Assembly (NCBI GenBank): GCA_048882045.1
Contig: JBHLRZ010000015.1
Span: forward strand, 12,540 to 76,539
Direction: 5' to 3'
Length of the DNA stretch: 64,000 bases
From: Candidatus Thorarchaeota archaeon
GTDB lineage: Archaea > Asgardarchaeota > Thorarchaeia > Thorarchaeales > Thorarchaeaceae
Shown piece after piece: positions 35,327 to 48,523 of the stretch. The position numbers and the translations under genes were made by a program. Every line of letters begins with the position of its first letter. Within the stretch, counting starts at the first letter, position 1. The notes under the pieces were generated by a model. The model saw nothing but the letters and a program-made list of their open reading frames with translations. It had not been told where the DNA came from and did no database searches.

Positions 35327-36280
35327 CTAAAAACCTCCAACAAAGCTTGGACCTGAACCTGATTCAGTTTCTTCATCTTCAGGAACTATGTCCTCATCAT
35401 CTGCTGTGAGTATCATGTAGACTCTTGTGAGGCCGATAGAGAGAGCAGGTAGAGTCACAAATACAAAGAAGATTGCCATGGGGATTGCGTAGATTCCCAT
35501 CGCAGCCATTCCGAGTCCGAATGTGGGTGGAAAAGCGAAAATCGCAACTATCAATGGCGCAATTAATGCGACCAATAGCAGGACAAAAGCAATCCAAAAC
35601 CCAATCACACGATCGAAGTAGTCGATACTCATCCGGAATGACTTCTTTGTAGCCTCTACAACAGAGTAGCCATCAATGATTGCTGGGAACAGCATAGTCA
35701 AAGATCCGGTACTCAGGACAAACCAGATCACTCCGAGCCCCGCAAGTACTGGACTGAGAAAAGATGTTGATCCAGCGCTTAAGAAAGCGAAGTTGAGTAC
35801 CTGGTCTCCAAAGACCGCGACAGCTCCAAATGAGATCAGAAAGACTGGTCCAGCAATGATTAGGAACATTACAATTCCTCCTCCTGCGAGAGAGAAGAAC
35901 TTCTTTTTGAACCACTGGAAGACTCCCTCAGCAGTTGTTCCCTCACTTTCTACAATCTCACGACTCATTCCAAAGAGAGCTCCAGAGGCAACAAAGAACG
36001 GAGTGATGAATGGAAGTGCAAAGAGGAATATCCCCAGTGCAATTGTTGCTCCTTGTGCAGTGCCCAATAGAGCAAATGACTCAAACCAGACGACCATGTT
36101 GCCGAATCCCATTATGAGGACTATAGGGATGAAAACTGCTGCTGCTACTACTAATAGCAGTAGACCAGCAACAATGAAGACTCCAATAATCGCAAGCACA
36201 TAGGATATGATATTCTTGATTGCAAACCTGAAGCTGATCTTCAAGTCTTCAAGAATTGTTTGAAAGCTCGCGTTTTTCAT
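35327..36280 (-). CDS. Multi-pass membrane protein (paralog A)
   Basis: About 6 TM; 'GALFGMSREIV..G.T.AE..F..F.KKF', 'FPAI..G..V.EA.K.S......YFDRV'. Confidence 0.75.
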   Translation of the reverse strand: MKNASFQTILEDLKISFRFAIKNIISYVLAIIGVFIVAGLLLLVVAAAVFIPIVLIMGFGNMVVWFESFALLGTAQGATIALGIFLFALPFITPFFVASGALFGMSREIVESEGTTAEGVFQWFKKKFFSLAGGGIVMFLIIAGPVFLISFGAVAVFGDQVLNFAFLSAGSTSFLSPVLAGLGVIWFVLSTGSLTMLFPAIIDGYSVVEATKKSFRMSIDYFDRVIGFWIAFVLLLVALIAPLIVAIFAFPPTFGLGMAAMGIYAIPMAIFFVFVTLPALSIGLTRVYMILTADDEDIVPEDEETESGSGPSFVGGF

Positions 36281-36289
36281 TTTTTATCA

Positions 36290-36343
36290 CCAACAAAGTT
36301 TGTTGGAGAGTGTCTTATCAATTTCCATCAATAGACACTCTCC
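36290..36343 (-). other. Intergenic RNA hairpin with GNRA tetraloop and an overlapping SD-proximal hairpin
   Basis: mRNA reads GGAGAGUGUCU-AUUGAU-GGAA-AUUGAU-A-AGACACUCUCC; the overlapping CCAACAAACUUUGUUGG runs into the GGUGAU SD. Confidence 0.6.
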
Positions 36344-36356
36344 GAGTTCATCACAC

Positions 36357-37280
36357 TTACACTATCGGGACATCGTTCACAACACTCAGTGTTGCGACCG
36401 GACCTCCAGTTAGTTCCTGGTAGACCTTGACCCACGCAATCCTGACCATAGGTAGGAAGAGGAAGAGCCAGAGGAAAGCAGAAACTACGGTCCAGAGGGT
36501 GAGCGCGGCAAGTACAGGACCGAAGGTCATCAAGTAAGGTGGAATGAACGGTGCCTGGGTTATGCCCCAGACGATCATAGGACCGAATGATATCACCAAT
36601 AACAGAAGGATGGCAGACTGGAGGCCATATACACGATCGAAGTATCGTGTAGCCAGGGAGTAAGACTCCTTGACAGCTTCCTGAACACCCTTACCACTGG
36701 AGACTGCAGGAAACACCATGGAAGTAAGACCTGCAGTGATGAAGACCCACACGAATGTGGAGATAGTGAGGAGTTGGAACACGGGACTTGCAATGGTTGC
36801 AAAACCGTAGGCGTACGATGTGAGTCCCCAGGCGATAACAGGCGGGATTATGACAATGATGGTCAGAATGGCACCAGCACCAGCATATGTGAGGAACTTT
36901 CGGCGGAAGTATGAGAATGCAGACTCAGCCTTGGTTTCACCAGTGGTGACTAGATCATGGCTCATACCATAGATTGAACCACTCACAACCATGAACAAGG
37001 AAACAACAGGAATCAATACTAAGAGAGCAATGGCACCCAGCGCTAGTGGATTAGTGGCGGCCCAGTCCCTCAAAGCGATCAATGTTGCTTCAGATAGTGG
37101 CGCGAGTGCTAGATATGCAACTGCCGCTATCGGAGCTGCAATCAGCACAATTAGGACTAGAAAGACGATTATCATACCTAGACCTGCTAGGAAGTAGCTT
37201 AGCATAGACTTCCATGCGAGTCCAAGACTCGTCTTCATGTCGTTGAATACTGTGTTGAAACTTGTAGACATTATTGACAC
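36357..37280 (-). CDS. Multi-pass membrane protein (paralog B)
   Basis: Same motifs as 35327..36280 ('GSIYGMSHDLV..GETKAESAF..FRRKF', 'FPAV..GKGVQEAVKES......YFDRV'); a tandem duplicate. Confidence 0.75.
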   Translation of the reverse strand: MSIMSTSFNTVFNDMKTSLGLAWKSMLSYFLAGLGMIIVFLVLIVLIAAPIAAVAYLALAPLSEATLIALRDWAATNPLALGAIALLVLIPVVSLFMVVSGSIYGMSHDLVTTGETKAESAFSYFRRKFLTYAGAGAILTIIVIIPPVIAWGLTSYAYGFATIASPVFQLLTISTFVWVFITAGLTSMVFPAVSSGKGVQEAVKESYSLATRYFDRVYGLQSAILLLLVISFGPMIVWGITQAPFIPPYLMTFGPVLAALTLWTVVSAFLWLFLFLPMVRIAWVKVYQELTGGPVATLSVVNDVPIV

Positions 37281-41013: not shown

Positions 41014-42066
41014 ATGTGGTGGAAAAGGAGCGGTTCAAAGAAGTATCCAGGACCTAGTTGTGCAGTCTGGGAAATAACTCTTGCATGCAATCTGAATTGT
41101 ATACACTGCGGTTCCGCTGCAGGGAAGAAACGGGATGACGAACTGTCAATTGAAGAGGCTCTGAAACTCTGTGAAGACCTTCGTGGTATAGGTTGTCAGG
41201 GTGTCGCTCTGATGGGTGGTGAGCCTTTGCTCAGACCTGACTGGATTGAAATCTCTCAACGAGTCCATGAGTTAGACATGGATCTATCAATAATTACTAA
41301 CGGATGGCTCGGACAAGATGAAAAGACAACTCAGAAGATTGTGGAACTCGCTCCAGAATGTGTCACAATTAGTCTGGATGGCGGAGAGGCTTCTGTCCAT
41401 GACATGATCAGAGGGGTCGAGGGATCTTTTGATCGCGCAACGAAGGCCATTGATAGATACTCAGGTCTTGGACTACCAACTTCTGTGATAACCACAGTGC
41501 ACAAATTGAATCTTAAACAACTAGTGAAGGTCCGGGACCTTCTGAGAGGGAAAGGTGTTGCTTGGCAGATACAAATGGCAACTCCATATGGGAGATTGGA
41601 GCGTAGACAGGTCCTTTCTCAGGAGGAGTACTACTCGGTTGCATTATTCATCGCTGCTACTAGGAAACGATTTTCCAAGGAAATCATGGTAGCAGGAGCC
41701 CATGACATGGGTTATTTCTCACCCATTCTTCCTGAGCTTCAAGTGAAGGAGTGGCAAGGATGTCAGGCGGGCATCTCCACACTAGGGATACAGAGTAATG
41801 GGAATGTGCTTGGTTGTCTAGCACTCCCTGATGAGTTCATTGAAGGGAACATAAGAAACCGCACTCTCAGTGATATCTGGTATGACGAGAACACCTGCAA
41901 GTATTCTCGCCATTTCAAGAGTAGCGAAATCAAGGCTCATTGTGGAAGATGTGAGTATAAGATGCAGTGTGGAGGGGGGTGTTCAGCTGTATCTGTCAGT
42001 ATGTCAGGGGATCTTCATCAGGACCCATACTGCTGTCGGCACATAGAGCAGTCTATGAAAGCGTGA
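41014..42066 (+). CDS. Radical SAM/SPASM peptide/protein maturase, PlpX (splicease)-like
   Basis: AVWEITLACNLNCIHCGSAAG, GGEPLLRPDW, AWQIQ, MGYF, WQGCQAGISTLGI, GC, GNIR, CGRCEYKMQCGGGC, PYC (complete SPASM Cys set). Confidence 0.85.
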   Translation: MWWKRSGSKKYPGPSCAVWEITLACNLNCIHCGSAAGKKRDDELSIEEALKLCEDLRGIGCQGVALMGGEPLLRPDWIEISQRVHELDMDLSIITNGWLGQDEKTTQKIVELAPECVTISLDGGEASVHDMIRGVEGSFDRATKAIDRYSGLGLPTSVITTVHKLNLKQLVKVRDLLRGKGVAWQIQMATPYGRLERRQVLSQEEYYSVALFIAATRKRFSKEIMVAGAHDMGYFSPILPELQVKEWQGCQAGISTLGIQSNGNVLGCLALPDEFIEGNIRNRTLSDIWYDENTCKYSRHFKSSEIKAHCGRCEYKMQCGGGCSAVSVSMSGDLHQDPYCCRHIEQSMKA

Positions 42067-42109
42067 TTCAAAGTCTTTATCGGAGATTGGGTGTATTAGT
42101 AGATGGGTA

Positions 42110-42568
42110 TTGTCAATGAAGTCGCTTGGTCTAGGAGAATTCGAGTTCATGTTCTGGAGAATCAGGATGCACCTTCCCTCGCGGCTACGAAAGATTTTAG
42201 AAAACGGACTATATTCACAGTTTCTCTCACCGTCACAATTGCAGATGATAGAAACCCTTGGTGAGAACATTGGTCTAGATAAGGAGGAGATCCATGCAGC
42301 GGTTCCCGGTCATTTAGGACCATTCCACGCTGGTGATAGAAGGAGGATGACACTCTTTTCTTATCTAATAGCGATTCTTCTGATTGTTGCTGTTAGTTTG
42401 GTAATTCTGGTGTTTACAGGGAATTATCCTCTAAGTGATCCTAGTACAACCTACACACCTGGAACACGTTACGGGTCCATAAGTCCGAGAGACTTTAATA
42501 CAATACCTCATGAACCACAGTGCTTTTTGGGGAACATGACAGAGTCTTCTGAGGAGATGATTCATTGA
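42110..42568 (+). CDS. Single-TM protein with C-terminal YTPGTRYGSISPRDF motif (candidate rSAM substrate 1)
   Basis: Helical N-terminal domain, RRR + TM, conserved tail; paralog of the next gene. The true start may be downstream (42149 or 42167). Confidence 0.7.
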   Translation: MSMKSLGLGEFEFMFWRIRMHLPSRLRKILENGLYSQFLSPSQLQMIETLGENIGLDKEEIHAAVPGHLGPFHAGDRRRMTLFSYLIAILLIVAVSLVILVFTGNYPLSDPSTTYTPGTRYGSISPRDFNTIPHEPQCFLGNMTESSEEMIH

Positions 42569-42969
42569 TTCGACCTACTCTGCAGTCATTCAGACCAAGG
42601 TTAGTGAGAATGAAACAATTTCTTCCAGGAAGTCTATTTACGTTGCTTGATATACTCACCAAAGAAGATGGCCCAACCAAATCCCAGCTCGAGAGAATCA
42701 AACTCCTGGGGGAAGATATTGGTCTTGGGGAAGACGATGTTTTGACTGCTCTTGAACCATCCTCTGGCCCAATAGGATTTGATAGCCAACGGAGACCAAC
42801 ACTGTATCTGTCCTATATCTTGATACTAATTGTTGTTACAATTGGAGTGCTTGTAGTATGGACAATAGTTGATCCAGAATCATCACCAATCAAGACCTAT
42901 CTTCCTGGGACATTGTATGGAACCATTCGACCCGATGATTTTGCCCAATCAAAGCTTGTGAGGTTCTAG
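42565..42969 (+). CDS. Single-TM protein with C-terminal YLPGTLYGTIRPDDF motif (candidate rSAM substrate 2)
   Basis: Aligns with the previous gene (SQL..I..LGE.IGL....; RR + TM; tail motif); start overlaps the upstream stop. Confidence 0.7.
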   Translation: MIRPTLQSFRPRLVRMKQFLPGSLFTLLDILTKEDGPTKSQLERIKLLGEDIGLGEDDVLTALEPSSGPIGFDSQRRPTLYLSYILILIVVTIGVLVVWTIVDPESSPIKTYLPGTLYGTIRPDDFAQSKLVRF

Positions 42970-42978
42970 GAGAGGCTG

Positions 42979-44292
42979 GTGCCCACTCTGAAATTGAATC
43001 TGGGATGCGGGCTGGTGTACAAGAAAGGCTACATAAATGTGGACGCCTTCGACCATACTATTGCAGATCAAGTGATGTCGATTCTCGATCTTGACTTCAA
43101 TGACAACTACTTCTCTCAGATTGAGTGTATGCAAGTTCTCGAGCATCTAGGTGCTGCTAAGAGCATATACGCCTTAGCTGAGATTTATCGTGTATTGGAG
43201 CCAAATGGATTGTTTGTTCTTGAAACTCCGGATATTGAAACTGCATTCCACTATTTTCTCAAGAACAATGAGTCCAAACGGAAGATTCTGATGAACTGGA
43301 TCTTTGGCCTTGATATTCCAGGAATGTCACATAAGTATGGTTTTCCTAAGGTATTACTGGAACAAGTTTTGAGAGAGGTTGGATTTGCAGATATTAAAAT
43401 CGAGCAGATTAGAAAAGATACTCTGCAACCAACTCTTCGGGCGATATGTACGAAGACAGACTCACAAATCCACCAGTTCTTCACGCACCTCAGAAAAGAT
43501 CTCAACCAGAGAGGAATAGCGGATATGGAAAATCAAGTAGACATAATCGAACTGGAAGAACTTCTTCAGAAGATTCTGAGATTATTACTGAGTGGAAAAA
43601 CACCTGTTGACAGGGAGCAAATCAAACAAGTTCTGGGATTTGCATTTTTGAGTTGTCCAAAGGTTGGTCTAGTGTTATTAGAAATGATGAAAAAACACAA
43701 CCTTGTCAACTCGACGGATATCTATTCGTTTACAAAAATACTTACTGAGTTTGCAACTTTTGACCTCACAATGGTAACGTTACATACTTTTCTAGAGATG
43801 CCTATCATACCAGGTTCACAATCAAATACGTTCGATTTGGTCAAAGCTATGATGATGAAGTCTATTGGTAAAGTCCTCTCAGGAGACATGGAGGTTCTTG
43901 AACAGCTTAGAAACACAGCAGAGTCAATGTCGATTGACATTTCTCTAGATTTCTTCTCGAAGACAATGTTGGAGAATGTTTCAAACAAACAGCTTGCATT
44001 GGGTTCAAAGGCTTTTTCTCTCGGAGAATACGATGATGCAATTGTCCACTACAAAAATTCGGTCAAGTCAAATCGTGATACCTTGTTGGGATTCTGGAAT
44101 CTAGCACGTTTGCACAGTTTGAGAAATGATGAGAAAGAAGCGCTCAAGTTTTACCAAGCTATTGAAAGTCTGATATCTAATCAGCATCCAAAATTGCAAA
44201 GAGCACTACAAGAGAAGTTTAACAGAGAAATCAAGCTGTTGAAAGAGAATCGGTCTGAATCGGTTGCTGAACCTCTGATATCCTTGTATTAG
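42979..44292 (+). CDS. Class I SAM-dependent methyltransferase domain + helical region + C-terminal TPR
   Basis: 'LKLNLGCG..YKKGYINVD', 'VLEHL', 'EIYRVLEPNG...LETPD'; TPR-like 'LGEYDDAIVHYKNSV...FWNLARL'. Confidence 0.8.
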   Translation: MPTLKLNLGCGLVYKKGYINVDAFDHTIADQVMSILDLDFNDNYFSQIECMQVLEHLGAAKSIYALAEIYRVLEPNGLFVLETPDIETAFHYFLKNNESKRKILMNWIFGLDIPGMSHKYGFPKVLLEQVLREVGFADIKIEQIRKDTLQPTLRAICTKTDSQIHQFFTHLRKDLNQRGIADMENQVDIIELEELLQKILRLLLSGKTPVDREQIKQVLGFAFLSCPKVGLVLLEMMKKHNLVNSTDIYSFTKILTEFATFDLTMVTLHTFLEMPIIPGSQSNTFDLVKAMMMKSIGKVLSGDMEVLEQLRNTAESMSIDISLDFFSKTMLENVSNKQLALGSKAFSLGEYDDAIVHYKNSVKSNRDTLLGFWNLARLHSLRNDEKEALKFYQAIESLISNQHPKLQRALQEKFNREIKLLKENRSESVAEPLISLY

Positions 44293-44339: not shown

Positions 44340-45431
44340 ATGTCCCTCATTCACACAGAACTTTGCGACATCATTGGCATCAAACACCCTATACTTCAGG
44401 GAGGTATGGGACCGTACAAGACTGAGTCGTTGTCGATAGCTGTTGCAAACGCTGGAGCACTTGGAATCATAAGCTGTATTGGGATGGCAGCCACGCTTCT
44501 ACCCGAGGCTGCTCCTCTTGATGCAGAGAGAATCTTCGGATCGGATCCTCCTGCGGTCATTCTACAAAAGTCGATTGAAGCTGTCACCAAAGAAACGAGG
44601 TCATCAAAGGGAATCTTTGGCGTGAATGTGCCAGTAGCTGCAGAGTTCATACTAGCTTCCAAGATGTTTGTAGAGCAGACTATTGAGTCATGTAAAGCAG
44701 ACTCGGACACAGAACGAGCCCTGAGAGTTGTTGTCACTTCAGCCGGAAACCCAAAACCCTGGTCAGTTCTCAAGGATGAAGGTTTCATCTGGATACATGT
44801 TGTACCTTCGGTTTATCATGCAAAGAAGGCTGAAGCTGCTGGAGCCGATGTCATCGTGGCTTCTGGTCATGAGGGCGGAGCACATGTCAGTTGGGACCCA
44901 GTCCATTCAATGGTCCTCGTACCGGCAGTGGCAAAGGCTGTGAAGACACCAGTGGTTGGTGCTGGCGGCTTCTGTGATGGGAAAACACTTGCAGCTGCTC
45001 TTTGTTTGGGAGCTGTTGGCGTTCAGATGGGTACTAGATTCATTGCCACACAGGAGAGCGATTTCGAACCCATGTGGAAGCAGTCGATTTTGAAGCGGGA
45101 GGAGCGTCAGACCCTTGTGGGTCGGGGTCTCTTCGGACCAATGAGGTTCCTCAGGAACCGGAGGGCTGAAGAAATCGTCGAGCAGACTCTTCAAGACCTG
45201 CCTAATTTCTATCTTGGCGAACCTCTTGATTCGAATGAGAAAATCTTGGAACTTGAACGAACAGGATTTGTAGACCTCATGGATGAGAAAGAGGAAAGTG
45301 CCCTCATGTTTGGTGGAGAGGTAGCTGGTCGTATCGAAAACCTACCAACTGCAAAGGAGCTGATCGATAGTATGGTTGCAGAGGCTTCTGAGGTCCTTGG
45401 AAACGTGCCAAAATTCATTGCAGACAAATGA
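44340..45431 (+). CDS. Nitronate monooxygenase / FabK-like FMN oxidoreductase
   Basis: 'HPILQGGMG', 'GHEGGAH', 'PVVGAGG', 'GVQMGTRF'. Confidence 0.88.
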   Translation: MSLIHTELCDIIGIKHPILQGGMGPYKTESLSIAVANAGALGIISCIGMAATLLPEAAPLDAERIFGSDPPAVILQKSIEAVTKETRSSKGIFGVNVPVAAEFILASKMFVEQTIESCKADSDTERALRVVVTSAGNPKPWSVLKDEGFIWIHVVPSVYHAKKAEAAGADVIVASGHEGGAHVSWDPVHSMVLVPAVAKAVKTPVVGAGGFCDGKTLAAALCLGAVGVQMGTRFIATQESDFEPMWKQSILKREERQTLVGRGLFGPMRFLRNRRAEEIVEQTLQDLPNFYLGEPLDSNEKILELERTGFVDLMDEKEESALMFGGEVAGRIENLPTAKELIDSMVAEASEVLGNVPKFIADK

Positions 45432-45507
45432 GAACCATCCGTGCGAGGAAATAAAGGGGCCCGCGCTATGTGGAATAGTGCATACGGTACTCCGAGGAGA
45501 GATGGGA

Positions 45508-46689
45508 ATGGTCTGGTGGTTCTATGTTCCAAACATTGTGTTCGGAGAAGATGCTCTAACTGAGCTTGAAACGATTGACGGAACGAAAGCGTTCATTGTC
45601 ACTGACAAGGTGATCAACAGCCTAGGTCTGGCCGAAAGAGTTTGTTCGATGTTGACGAGTAGGATGTGGGAGGCTGCAATATGGGATGGTGCAGTTCCTG
45701 ATCCCAAGGTGTCTACAGTTAATGAAGCAGCAGACGCGATGAAACGGTTTGGTGCTGATTGGATAATCGCCATAGGCGGTGGAAGTGTAATGGACACAGC
45801 AAAGGCTGCTTGGGTCCTGTATGAGAAGCCAGACGTAGAGCTACATGCACTAACACCTTTTGACGAGCTGGGTCTGAGAGCCAAAGCAAGGCTCATCTGT
45901 ATTCCCACCACTACAGGTACGGGCTCGGAAGCAACAAAGGCAATTGTAATTCGAGATGATGAAACAGGAAGAAAGTTTGCGACAATCAATCCTGAATTGA
46001 CTCCGGATATAGCAATCCTAGACCCTGAGTTTGTAGTCGGGCTGCCAAAGGACATGACCGCCTACACAGGGATGGACGCCTTGACTCATGCTGTTGAAGG
46101 TTATGTTTCTGTCTGGAAGAACGACTTCTCTGATGGGTGCTCACTACAGGCTGTAAGGATGATATTTGAATGGCTTCCCAAATCCGTTGAAGACCTGTCA
46201 AATCTTGAGATTCGTGAGAAGATGCAGATTGCAGCCTGTCTTGCAGGTATGTCCTTTGGGAATTCTCAAGCCGCACTGGCCCATTCACTCGGGCATAGCA
46301 TGGGATCAGTACTTCGAACTCAGCACGGAATGTCAGTGGGAATGGCCCTCCCATATACTATTGAATTCAACTGTAGAGGGAAAGAGAACGAAGAAGCTGC
46401 AAGACAGTACATGGAATTAGCAAGGATGATAGGAATATCAGGTAGGAAACCTGAAACAGTGTCTCTCAAGTTTGCAGTGTCAATTAGAGAACTGATGTCG
46501 CAGATTGGAACTCCGCGGAGTTTCAAGGAAGCGGGTATCAAGAAGAAGGACTTCAATGCGGCTCTCGAGAATATGGTGGACTTTGCTATGATGGACACAA
46601 GTCTGACGATGAATCCTCGCAACATTGACAGTGAAGGTATTCGCAAGATGTACAAGTATATGTATGATGGAACCGTGATTGACTTCTAA
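45508..46689 (+). CDS. Iron-containing alcohol dehydrogenase
   Basis: GGGSVMD, PTTTGTGSE, GMDALTHAVE, HSLGH, HG; start set after the GAGGAG SD. Confidence 0.92.
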   Translation: MVWWFYVPNIVFGEDALTELETIDGTKAFIVTDKVINSLGLAERVCSMLTSRMWEAAIWDGAVPDPKVSTVNEAADAMKRFGADWIIAIGGGSVMDTAKAAWVLYEKPDVELHALTPFDELGLRAKARLICIPTTTGTGSEATKAIVIRDDETGRKFATINPELTPDIAILDPEFVVGLPKDMTAYTGMDALTHAVEGYVSVWKNDFSDGCSLQAVRMIFEWLPKSVEDLSNLEIREKMQIAACLAGMSFGNSQAALAHSLGHSMGSVLRTQHGMSVGMALPYTIEFNCRGKENEEAARQYMELARMIGISGRKPETVSLKFAVSIRELMSQIGTPRSFKEAGIKKKDFNAALENMVDFAMMDTSLTMNPRNIDSEGIRKMYKYMYDGTVIDF

Positions 46690-48523
46690 AGGGGGAGAGA
46701 CATTGAAGGGATATCGAGGAAAGATTCTGAGAGTAGATCTTAGTGCTGGATCAACATCAGTTACTGCCACAGACGAGAAGATACTCAGGGATTTTATTGG
46801 AGGTGCAGGTCTTGGAGCTCGTCTTTTGTATGACATGATTGATAGTGATACAGATCCACTCAGTCCTGAGAATCCATTGTTGTACCTCACCGGTCCACTG
46901 TGTGGCACCATGGCTCCCACAGGTAGTAAGTCAACTTTCTGTTCAAGGTCGCCAAAGACAGGTATTTTCGGTTACAGCACCGTTGGAGGACATCTTGGTG
47001 CAGACCTGAAGTTTGCGGGTTATGATGGAATAGTCTTCACTGGTGCTGCAGAGAAACCGTCATATCTTCTGATCGAGAATTCCGACGTGGAGATCAGGGA
47101 TGCAAAACATCTGTGGGGGAAGAATACAGAACAAGTATGGGAGGAACTGAAGAAAGAAACAGGCCATAGGAATGCAGGGATTGCTCGTATTGGTATTGCG
47201 GGTGAAAACCTTGTCAAATATGCCAACATCATCGTGGACCACAACAGAGCAGCAGGAAGGACTGGACAAGGGGCAGTGATGGGCTCCAAGAAACTGAAGG
47301 CCATAGTGATCCATGGAACAGACCGGAAAGTTCCGGTGGCTGACGAGGAAGGACTGAGAGAGTATGCTTCAGAATTGAATGAGGACAAGAAGGAAGACCC
47401 AACATTCCGGATGTATTCTGATCTCGGTACAGCAGGATTTACTGACATGGCCAGTATGATGTGGGGCTCACTCCCTGCAGGATACTATACGGTGCCTGAT
47501 TTCGACACCTACAATCTGAGCGGTACGACTGTCCGTGAAACAATTCTAGTTGGTAAATCAGCATGCTACAGATGTCCTATTGGTTGTGGAAGAGTAGTGA
47601 CGATTCCTGAGGGCAAATACAAGATGGAAAAGTACGCAGGTCCTGAGCTTGAAGTAACAGGAACCATGGGATCGCTCATCTTGAATAACAATGTTGAATC
47701 TGTAGCATATGCGAACAGGATACTCAATCAGCTTGGGATTGATACAATTTCTGGAGGAAACACAATCGCATTAGCATATTACCTGTTCAAAGAAGGGAAG
47801 GTATCAGCAAATGACCTCGACGGGATTTCGCCAGAATGGGGAGAGATCGATTCAGCAGTAACCTTCGCGAAGAAGATAGCAAAACGAGAGGGCATAGGAG
47901 AATTGATGGCTGAGGGTGCTACAGCGCTTGGAGAGAGGTTTGGTGCTGCAGAACTCGCAGTCCAGACTAATGGTCTGGAGTTTCCAATGCATGACCCTCG
48001 AGGATTCTCTGGACATGCAATTGGATATGCAACATCACCACGTGGAGCATGTCATATGTCTGCAGACATGTACAATGTTCAGATGGGACAACCAAACGTG
48101 GCATTCAATATCGAGAGCGAAGACAGATTCGCAAACGAAGCGGACTTGGTTGCCAGACTACAGAACTTCAGAGCCCTAACGAACTCATCCGTTCTTTGCA
48201 ACTTCTATCCAGCAGATGGAGACCAGCTACTAAAACTGCTCCAACTGACAACTGGGTGGGACATCACTATAGAGGAACTAGTCCAGACGGGTGAGAAAAT
48301 TTTCACCATGATGCGACTTCTGAACCTAAAACTTGGATATGACTCAAAGAACGAGGGTCTTCCAGAACTCGTTCTGAGACCTCTGGAAGGCGCAACCGAG
48401 GAGCATGTTCCTGACATAGAAGCGCAGCTAAACACATGGTATGAGTACAGAGGTTGGGACAGAAAATCAGGAAGACCTCCTGTGGACAAGCTGAAGTCAC
48501 TGGGAATGGACGACTTCACCTGA
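46679..48523 (+). CDS. aor: Tungsten-dependent aldehyde:ferredoxin oxidoreductase family
   Basis: 'GKILRVDLS', 'GRTGQGAVMGSKKLKAI', 'CYRCPIGC', 'GIDTISGG', 'DPRG', 'RGACH'. Confidence 0.92.
   Translation: MTSKGGETLKGYRGKILRVDLSAGSTSVTATDEKILRDFIGGAGLGARLLYDMIDSDTDPLSPENPLLYLTGPLCGTMAPTGSKSTFCSRSPKTGIFGYSTVGGHLGADLKFAGYDGIVFTGAAEKPSYLLIENSDVEIRDAKHLWGKNTEQVWEELKKETGHRNAGIARIGIAGENLVKYANIIVDHNRAAGRTGQGAVMGSKKLKAIVIHGTDRKVPVADEEGLREYASELNEDKKEDPTFRMYSDLGTAGFTDMASMMWGSLPAGYYTVPDFDTYNLSGTTVRETILVGKSACYRCPIGCGRVVTIPEGKYKMEKYAGPELEVTGTMGSLILNNNVESVAYANRILNQLGIDTISGGNTIALAYYLFKEGKVSANDLDGISPEWGEIDSAVTFAKKIAKREGIGELMAEGATALGERFGAAELAVQTNGLEFPMHDPRGFSGHAIGYATSPRGACHMSADMYNVQMGQPNVAFNIESEDRFANEADLVARLQNFRALTNSSVLCNFYPADGDQLLKLLQLTTGWDITIEELVQTGEKIFTMMRLLNLKLGYDSKNEGLPELVLRPLEGATEEHVPDIEAQLNTWYEYRGWDRKSGRPPVDKLKSLGMDDFT

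Follow-up and report, generated by a model that had tools for sequence, protein, structure and literature searches.

The window considered here is a 64,000-nucleotide stretch of a Thorarchaeota genome (3.63 Mb in 93 contigs, 93 per cent complete), in which four genes of the + strand, at positions 41014–44292, form the cassette that is the subject of this analysis. They encode a radical S-adenosylmethionine (SAM) enzyme with a SPASM domain (hereafter rSAM), two small proteins (orfA and orfB), and a methyltransferase that continues into a tetratricopeptide repeat (TPR)-like domain (MT-TPR; Table 1). The genes are packed as in an operon: 49 bp separate rSAM from orfA, orfA and orfB overlap by 4 bp, and 9 bp lie between orfB and the methyltransferase gene. 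A sequence-only reading of the window had proposed that these genes make up a splicease system, in which the rSAM would excise tyramine from a Tyr-Gly (YG) site in the tail of each small protein. Translation reproduced the underlying description exactly, including the four genes, the two tails, the 9-bp spacing, and the in-frame YG codons at 42470–42475 (TACGGG, RYG in orfA) and 42916–42921 (TATGGA, LYG in orfB). Also borne out was the claim that orfA and orfB are diverged paralogs (37 per cent identity, E-value 3e-21) with a single hydrophobic segment apiece, one 19-residue stretch being present at residues 84–102 of each. Neither protein matches a family in Pfam or NCBIfam.

Table 1. Features of the cassette, with positions in the window.
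Feature	Position	Strand	Details
Radical SAM/SPASM maturase (rSAM)	41014–42066	+	350 aa; Pfam Radical_SAM (1.6e-25) and SPASM
Precursor paralog A (orfA)	42116–42568	+	150 aa from ATG at 42116; the open reading frame opens at TTG 42110
orfA leader-helix motif LGENIGLDKEE, residues 48–58	42257–42289	+	LGxxxGLxxxE column block kept in all paralogs
orfA predicted transmembrane segment, residues 84–102, preceded by RRR	42365–42421	+	Top 19-residue Kyte-Doolittle window, mean 3.07
orfA conserved tail YTPGTRYGSISPRDF, with candidate target Tyr119 (codon 42470–42472)	42452–42496	+	Direct translation; Y, P, D, and F columns invariant
Precursor paralog B (orfB)	42565–42969	+	134 aa; TTG start overlaps the orfA stop; partner chain in the complex model
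orfB leader-helix motif LGEDIGLGEDD, residues 48–58	42706–42738	+	Conserved columns G49, G53, L54, and position 58
orfB predicted transmembrane segment, residues 84–102, preceded by RR	42814–42870	+	Top 19-residue Kyte-Doolittle window, mean 2.90
orfB conserved tail YLPGTLYGTIRPDDF, with candidate target Tyr118 (codon 42916–42918)	42898–42942	+	Direct translation; residues 110–126 lie within the modelled rSAM-barrel interface
MT-TPR gene, whole	42979–44292	+	437 aa
Class I SAM-dependent methyltransferase domain, MT-TPR residues 1–160	42979–43458	+	Pfam Methyltransf_11; NxGCG; invariant G9, G11, N20, and D22
All-helical TPR-like domain, MT-TPR residues 163–429	43465–44265	+	Weak Pfam TPR matches at 339–395; PDB matches to consensus TPR proteins; helical repeats in the model

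The cassette recurs well beyond the window. Its closest counterparts are in metagenome-assembled genomes (MAGs) of Thorarchaeota, and in 15 loci from Thorarchaeota and Hermodarchaeota (L001–L015) one to four paralogous small genes come after that for the rSAM. The order rSAM, precursor, methyltransferase holds in 13 of the 15, and the remaining two end before the position of the methyltransferase. Co-occurrence of the tail genes with the rSAM in other Asgard genomes, to which the sequence-only reading had pointed, was found: they are syntenic in every Thorarchaeota/Hermodarchaeota locus that extends downstream past the rSAM and in the majority of the other lineages examined. In 13 of 14 other Asgard loci, as in most bacterial ones, the methyltransferase adjoins the rSAM or lies close to it. 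The cassette (an rSAM, one to four precursors, and an MT-TPR) was seen in Thor-, Hermod-, Loki-, Hod-, and Odinarchaeota, Thermoplasmatota, Elusimicrobiota, Geobacter, and Syntrophus. Orthologs of the rSAM at 44–52 per cent identity occur in Elusimicrobiota, Geobacter, Syntrophus, Smithellaceae, Nitrospiraceae, Thermoplasmatales, and Atabeyarchaeia, and further ones in Loki-, Hod-, and Odinarchaeota and in MAGs labelled Nanohalarchaeota. The distribution is patchy, with the rSAM present in 68 of 301 sampled Asgard genomes and in 8 of the 24 genomes of the source genus. A full cassette, in the order precursor, rSAM, MT-TPR, is carried by the cultured Geobacter hydrogenophilus DSM 13691 (L272, 2392–5387; NZ_JAHCZI010000001.1). 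All retrieved precursor homologs that bear a source name are annotated as 'hypothetical protein'. The recurrence of gene order and tail across the 15 Thorarchaeota/Hermodarchaeota loci is far beyond chance, and the cassette is a real, widespread, and unannotated system.

Two further observations concern its distribution. A sister subgroup of the rSAM (37–39 per cent identity; L243–L248) is found in genomes of about 2 Mb from the phylum Cyanobacteriota; these enzymes stand alone, with neither a methyltransferase nor a Tyr-tail precursor in the vicinity, and for that reason are uninformative about function. In one Elusimicrobia MAG, a subtilase gene (Peptidase_S8, E-value 1.5e-63; L017, 4683–5885) lies directly upstream of the rSAM-methyltransferase pair, and its product is possibly a target or a processing protease.

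An alignment of 40 small proteins from the Thorarchaeota/Hermodarchaeota loci has only two strongly conserved parts, an N-terminal LGxxxGLxxxE and the tail Y-x-P-G-T-x-Y-[G/A]-[S/T/A]-I-x-P-x-D-F. Precursors of all lineages possess the N-terminal LGxxxGLxxxE helix and a C-terminal x-Y-x-[TSVA]-[VIF] core, within a common layout of leader block (e.g. LGKKTGLDDNE or IGKELGLTKKE), hydrophobic segment, variable middle, and Tyr-centred end. In a census of about 66 precursors across lineages, which was corrected by eye for four false matches and one mis-registered motif, the core Tyr is invariant, and no other tail residue is invariant across all lineages.

Lineages differ in what surrounds this core. 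Thermoplasmatales (Thermoplasmatota) precursors are soluble peptides of 61–63 aa without a membrane segment, and those of Loki-, Hod-, and Odinarchaeota end in YSTVKxKDF. Precursors from Elusimicrobiota and Nitrospiraceae contain lipobox-like motifs (LTGC, LISC, LAAC), and in those from Geobacter and Syntrophus the middle part contains a Pfam Kunitz/BPTI domain (E-value about 1e-13), and the hydrophobic segment looks like a cleavable signal peptide. The G. hydrogenophilus precursor comprises a leader, a predicted signal peptide, and the tail GTKYYTVSVRDF; its Kunitz/BPTI-like domain was read by eye from likeness to the Pfam-scored precursor of locus L024. The YGGC motif of the Kunitz domain was considered as a target and set aside, because it is missing from the precursors of L025, L027, and all Elusimicrobiota, which nevertheless keep the tail Tyr. 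Another group of Asgard precursors (L259, L263, L264, and L266) has two to four hydrophobic segments, a [ST]-Y-P motif after the first of them, and an x-Y-G-[VT]-[FY] core at the very end; these proteins look as if membrane helices had been inserted between the two halves of a Thorarchaeota-type tail (TYxPGT ... YG).

Among NCBIfam models, the rSAM matches best TIGR04103 (PlpX type; 200.2 bits) and TIGR03913 (GDL-associated; 193.9 bits). For the rSAM and five relatives, the top two models are always these, at 160–230 bits over full-length alignments, with TIGR03913 in first place for several relatives (181–222 bits). The next matches are AhbD, NirJ2, or TIGR04133, at 130–179 bits, and every one of these scores, those of the top two models included, is far below its cut-off; for the rSAM itself the values are 164 bits for AhbD (third-best; cut-off 500), 137 bits for TIGR04133 (cut-off 425), and 128 bits for AhbC (cut-off 650). 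An affinity of the enzyme to spliceases, the core of the sequence-only reading, is thus upheld by the two splicease models being the best NCBIfam matches. The cluster architecture agrees with that of spliceases, a CxxxCxxC plus a SPASM domain with auxiliary-cluster cysteines (Pfam and alignment), and the cysteines C25, C29, and C32 and those at SPASM positions 250, 268, 310, 313, 319, 323, and 340 are invariant. Of the motifs earlier named as diagnostic, WQIQ (residues 184–187) and the GS after CxxxCxxC are truly common to the rSAM and spliceases alone, but GNIR and PYC turned out to be general SPASM features. Pfam detected no RiPP recognition element (RRE; RiPP, a peptide made by the ribosome and modified after translation) in the rSAM, and no RRE-type gene among the neighbouring genes scanned against Pfam.

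We placed the enzyme in a tree of TIGR04103 members and graded relatives (Cyanobacteriota), TIGR03913-like proteins (Myxococcota), AhbD/AhbC, MftC, PqqE (Burkholderiales), and one TIGR04133 member, reconstructed in a quick IQ-TREE run (LG+C20, SH-aLRT support) with AhbC/D, MftC, and PqqE as outgroups. The splicease-type groups, the rSAM family, and a long TIGR04133 branch form a super-clade (SH-aLRT 94) that excludes AhbC/D, MftC, and PqqE. Support is 99–100 for the splicease-type groups and 92–97 for the rSAM family. The Myxococcota relatives of TIGR03913 (460–517 bits) cluster with the spliceases, apart from the rSAM family. A tree constrained to join the rSAM family with AhbC/D is worse by 21.8 log-likelihood units and can be rejected (approximately unbiased [AU] test; p-AU = 0.018). 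Of the placement put forward from sequence, one half therefore stands, in that the rSAM does not cluster with heme or cofactor enzymes, and the other does not, the family being sister to the splicease clade and not inside it.

These results bear directly on whether the rSAM could be a heme or cofactor enzyme of the AhbC/AhbD/NirJ type with merely coincidental neighbours. The rank of AhbD among the NCBIfam matches speaks for such an assignment, as do the AhbD and AhbC genes that were the closest non-family loci in a pattern search. Fold and cluster architecture are alike at about 30–34 per cent identity. Against the assignment, the AhbD match is far below its cut-off and split into two stretches, the joint clade is rejected by the AU test, no other heme-pathway genes adjoin the rSAM, and the synteny with precursor and methyltransferase extends across phyla. 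AhbC, AhbD, and NirJ act on tetrapyrroles, and no neighbours from their pathway are found here. We regard this explanation as very unlikely.

Eleven residues (V18, L23, G33, S34, R40, W184, Q185, Q187, G233, G258, and G267) are common to the rSAM and the sampled spliceases and not found in the outgroups, and two of them, Q185 and Q187, contact the tail in a model of the rSAM-orfB complex. The model was computed from the rSAM (alignment of 52), orfB (alignment of 30), SAM, and three 4Fe-4S clusters, and has an ipSAE of 0.91 (runs 0.89, 0.91, and 0.91), compared with 0.00 for the best of three controls. Of 80 solved complexes, 58 attain the score mark used, as do 2 of 110 mismatched pairs, a calibration that holds only roughly for this model because our own alignments and riding ligands were used. 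Partner pLDDT is 67–69, and at least 85 per cent of the contacts agree between runs. The leader interface places orfB 33–64 on rSAM 204–215, 238, and 345–348, with the lowest-error contacts between orfB 41–59 and rSAM 204–215, 238, 345, and 348. The whole tail (orfB 110–126) packs in the model against residues 15–20, 62–67, 92–94, 155–161, 181–187, 225–256, and 314–325 of the rSAM barrel and SPASM domain. No like complex was found among solved structures, and the nearest PDB sequence is PqqE (78 bits); the same layout, with a leader helix on the enzyme, is known from published models of the binary splicease RhaX-RhaA (PMC11414181). The complex model supports rSAM and orfB as a maturase-substrate pair and is silent on the type of reaction.

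Alternatively, the small membrane proteins may be partners, anchors, or regulators rather than substrates, with the enzyme pair acting on a lipid, a cofactor, or another molecule. One to four membrane segments would be unusual for RiPP substrates, and the modelled interface is large, with much of it contributed by the leader rather than the tail. Yet conservation across phyla is limited to a short leader motif and a Tyr core, as in RiPP precursors; the Thermoplasmatota versions are soluble; precursor copy number varies from one to four; and the complex model has the tail within the catalytic barrel. Such a non-substrate role appears very improbable. We consider it highly probable that the cassette pairs a maturase with its substrates and that the tail Tyr is where it acts, and our verdict on the system as a whole is that it is an uncharacterized splicease-related variant.

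In its confident AlphaFold2 model (pLDDT 92), MT-TPR has a compact class I fold (residues 1–160) with conserved SAM-binding residues, followed by the helical TPR-like domain. Searches for hints of the methyl acceptor gave none, as the PDB sequence search returned TPR proteins only, Foldseek only generic class I methyltransferases, and Atlas only Methyltransf_11 clusters. Because Tyr is the only tail residue conserved in every lineage, the target of methylation is not obvious from conservation either.

The analysis establishes the gene set with its conservation, the invariant Tyr, the kinship of the enzyme, and a confident binding model, whereas the reaction itself, the methyl acceptor, the sequence of steps, and a possible part in protease inhibition are inferred. 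In the scheme that we propose, the cytoplasmic rSAM would grip the LGxxxGLxxxE leader helix of both membrane proteins without a separate recognition protein, and the conserved C-terminal tail would thread into its barrel, where the enzyme would act on the invariant Tyr (Tyr119 of orfA, Tyr118 of orfB). The most likely chemistry would be excision of a tyramine equivalent (C8H9NO, 135.07 Da), leaving an alpha-keto-beta-amino amide at the preceding Arg or Leu, and MT-TPR would add a second modification, methylation. The positive-inside rule predicts that the orfA and orfB tails face outward, and the bacterial versions look exported, so that the rSAM would have to act before insertion or export. 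We give this whole explanation, a three-part modification cassette with a splicease reaction, a probability of roughly 0.5. For the rSAM reaction taken by itself, tyramine excision is our leading guess, a tentative one held at slightly less than even odds.

The shape of the tails accords with this proposal. Precursors encoded beside true TIGR04103 enzymes contain PVYGLP and PMYGVVF, and one ends in SIYGVVIRHF (L207, 3256–3567); PMYGVVF and SIYGVVIRHF resemble the YGTISIKHF, YGGVSIRDF, and YGVF of precursors of the rSAM family. In the limited sample available, x-Tyr-Gly substrate sites may thus be common to all three branches of the super-clade, which we treat as a lead. On the TIGR04133 branch, the one member checked (locus L251; 591 bits) is directly preceded by a gene for a 176-aa lipoprotein containing Met-Tyr-Gly (950–1480; the two genes together span 950–2565), which resembles the lipobox-bearing Elusimicrobiota precursors. 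TIGR04133, an uncharacterized hypothetical equivalog named 'rSAM with lipoprotein', shares the super-clade with the rSAM as a long and unresolved branch, but it differs in the precursor protein and has no methyltransferase partner.

Several findings weigh against a splicease reaction. The rSAM scores 200.2 bits against a TIGR04103 cut-off of 725 and 193.9 bits against a TIGR03913 cut-off of 591.75, so that membership in the PlpX-type or GDL-associated family has to be given up; true TIGR04103 members from Cyanobacteriota reach 805–862 bits. The rSAM family is a separate deep sister clade that is not nested among the sampled splicease-type groups. Residues invariant in the sampled spliceases are replaced (I67M, A71P, T94I, G96N, N159I, Q161T, T189A, PGNN228–231 to GAHD, G236S, P269L, G277E, and G335H). 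The residue after the Tyr is Gly in about 64 per cent of the precursors in the census, Ser in about 16 per cent, Ala in about 14 per cent, and Phe or Tyr in about 6 per cent, and YA occurs in about nine Thorarchaeota paralogs, while Loki-, Hod-, and Odinarchaeota have YS and Geobacter and Elusimicrobiota have YF or YY. In the originally proposed YG motif, then, the Tyr proved invariant but the Gly did not. The predicted topology puts the tail across the membrane from a cytoplasmic enzyme, and a methyltransferase, which known splicease systems do not need, is nearly always present. Many of the replaced residues, like many of the shared ones, fall in modelled tail contacts, which points to a pocket related to that of spliceases but remodelled. 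The replacement of splicease-invariant pocket residues is the main reason why we do not assume identical chemistry.

Some of these findings favour a cassette of this composition with another Tyr-directed reaction, such as a C-C or C-O crosslink to a neighbour, desaturation, hydroxylation, or Calpha-Cbeta cleavage, the product of which would be capped by the methyltransferase. The rSAM family forms its own clade, long branches away from the splicease-type groups; pocket residues are changed at N159I and NN230–231 to HD; and the variable residue after the Tyr and the near-universal methyltransferase fit as well. Tyr is also modified by other SPASM enzymes: PqqE crosslinks it to a Glu, and with MftC a C-terminal Tyr is decarboxylated. 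On the other hand, the nearest studied relatives by HMM (hidden Markov model) score, BLAST rank, and tree are spliceases and not PqqE or MftC, the WQIQ signature is common to spliceases only, the tails resemble true splice sites (x-Y-G-V-[VIF]), and no second residue is invariant across lineages to serve as a fixed crosslink partner. A different Tyr reaction is a genuine possibility, to which we give somewhat less credence than to tyramine excision.

Described spliceases include the type I systems PlpX/PlpY/PlpA and PcpXYA and the binary RhaX/RhaA, RcsX, and RasX (PMC11414181, PMC11626197, PMC11002830); TIGR04103 corresponds to the PlpX family IPR026482 (PMC11002830), and spliceotide clusters have been found in bacterial and archaeal genomes (PMC11626197). 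The cassette is like them in its radical SAM plus SPASM enzyme, best HMM match, super-clade, WQIQ, CxxxCxHCGS, and R40, in a precursor gene that adjoins the enzyme, and in a Tyr core that is mostly Tyr-Gly. As reported for the binary RhaX-RhaA, a leader alpha-helix is predicted to lie on the enzyme, and no RRE protein was seen among the neighbours scanned. Unlike them, the rSAM is only 33–37 per cent identical, forms a separate clade far below the family cut-off, and is shorter (350 aa, compared with about 390–440 aa for the splicease-type sequences compared); several pocket residues invariant in the sampled spliceases are replaced, Gly after the Tyr is not required, an MT-TPR gene is nearly always present, and the precursors are membrane-anchored or exported proteins rather than Nif11/NHLP peptides. 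TIGR03913 is among the two best full-length NCBIfam matches, but the cassette has no GDL-motif peptide. PqqE and MftC are likewise radical SAM/SPASM enzymes whose target is a Tyr close to the C-terminus of a ribosomal precursor, but they are 22–27 per cent identical, fall among the tree outgroups, and depend on an RRE of the PqqD type, of which none was seen here.

Should the chemistry be splicing, Asgard archaea and several anaerobic bacterial phyla would form backbone beta-amino acids and ketoamides in membrane and exported proteins, beyond the free RiPP peptides in which this has been studied; if it is another chemistry, the cassette would perform a conserved Tyr modification without a described counterpart. 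Our literature searches on Asgard RiPP radical SAM enzymes and on Kunitz domains with radical SAM/SPASM enzymes returned nothing relevant, within a coverage that did not extend to the census of Scott et al. 2022 (Chem). That census, with its 27 validated spliceases, is reportedly the main one for these enzymes. The system is tractable, with soluble Thermoplasmatota precursors of 61–63 aa, the cultured G. hydrogenophilus DSM 13691 copy, and a clear mass prediction.

As for biological role, Asgard archaea and anaerobic bacteria might place a ketoamide, or an electrophile related to it, in the tail backbone of proteins that are membrane-anchored or exported, as opposed to free peptides, which would yield surface-tethered protease-inhibitor warheads. 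The Kunitz fusions of Geobacter and Syntrophus would be two-headed inhibitors, and the leader would be lost along with the signal peptide or through lipoprotein processing. We consider this scenario rather unlikely as a whole, and the Kunitz fusions and the neighbouring subtilase give a hint of protease control at the cell surface.

The surroundings of the cassette are conserved over a shorter range. Upstream SCP2 and PHP genes were considered as parts of it and rejected, as they are syntenic in close Thorarchaeota only and absent from L009–L015 and from other phyla. On the - strand, at 35327–37280 of the window, two tandem paralogous genes encode multi-pass membrane proteins of 317 and 307 aa (about 30 per cent identical), which occupy the same position in the related Thorarchaeota loci L001–L008. 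A conserved run of three genes follows the cassette on the + strand (44340–48523) at 74–89 per cent identity in relatives and is tied to it only in close Thorarchaeota. A Pfam scan identifies the first of the three as a nitronate-monooxygenase-like FMN enzyme; the second and third, at a guess from position and length, may be an alcohol dehydrogenase and an aldehyde:ferredoxin oxidoreductase. In one Thorarchaeota relative (L002, 9438–10399), a duplicate of the PHP-SCP2 pair found ahead of the rSAM lies behind the methyltransferase, in what looks like a local rearrangement around the cassette.

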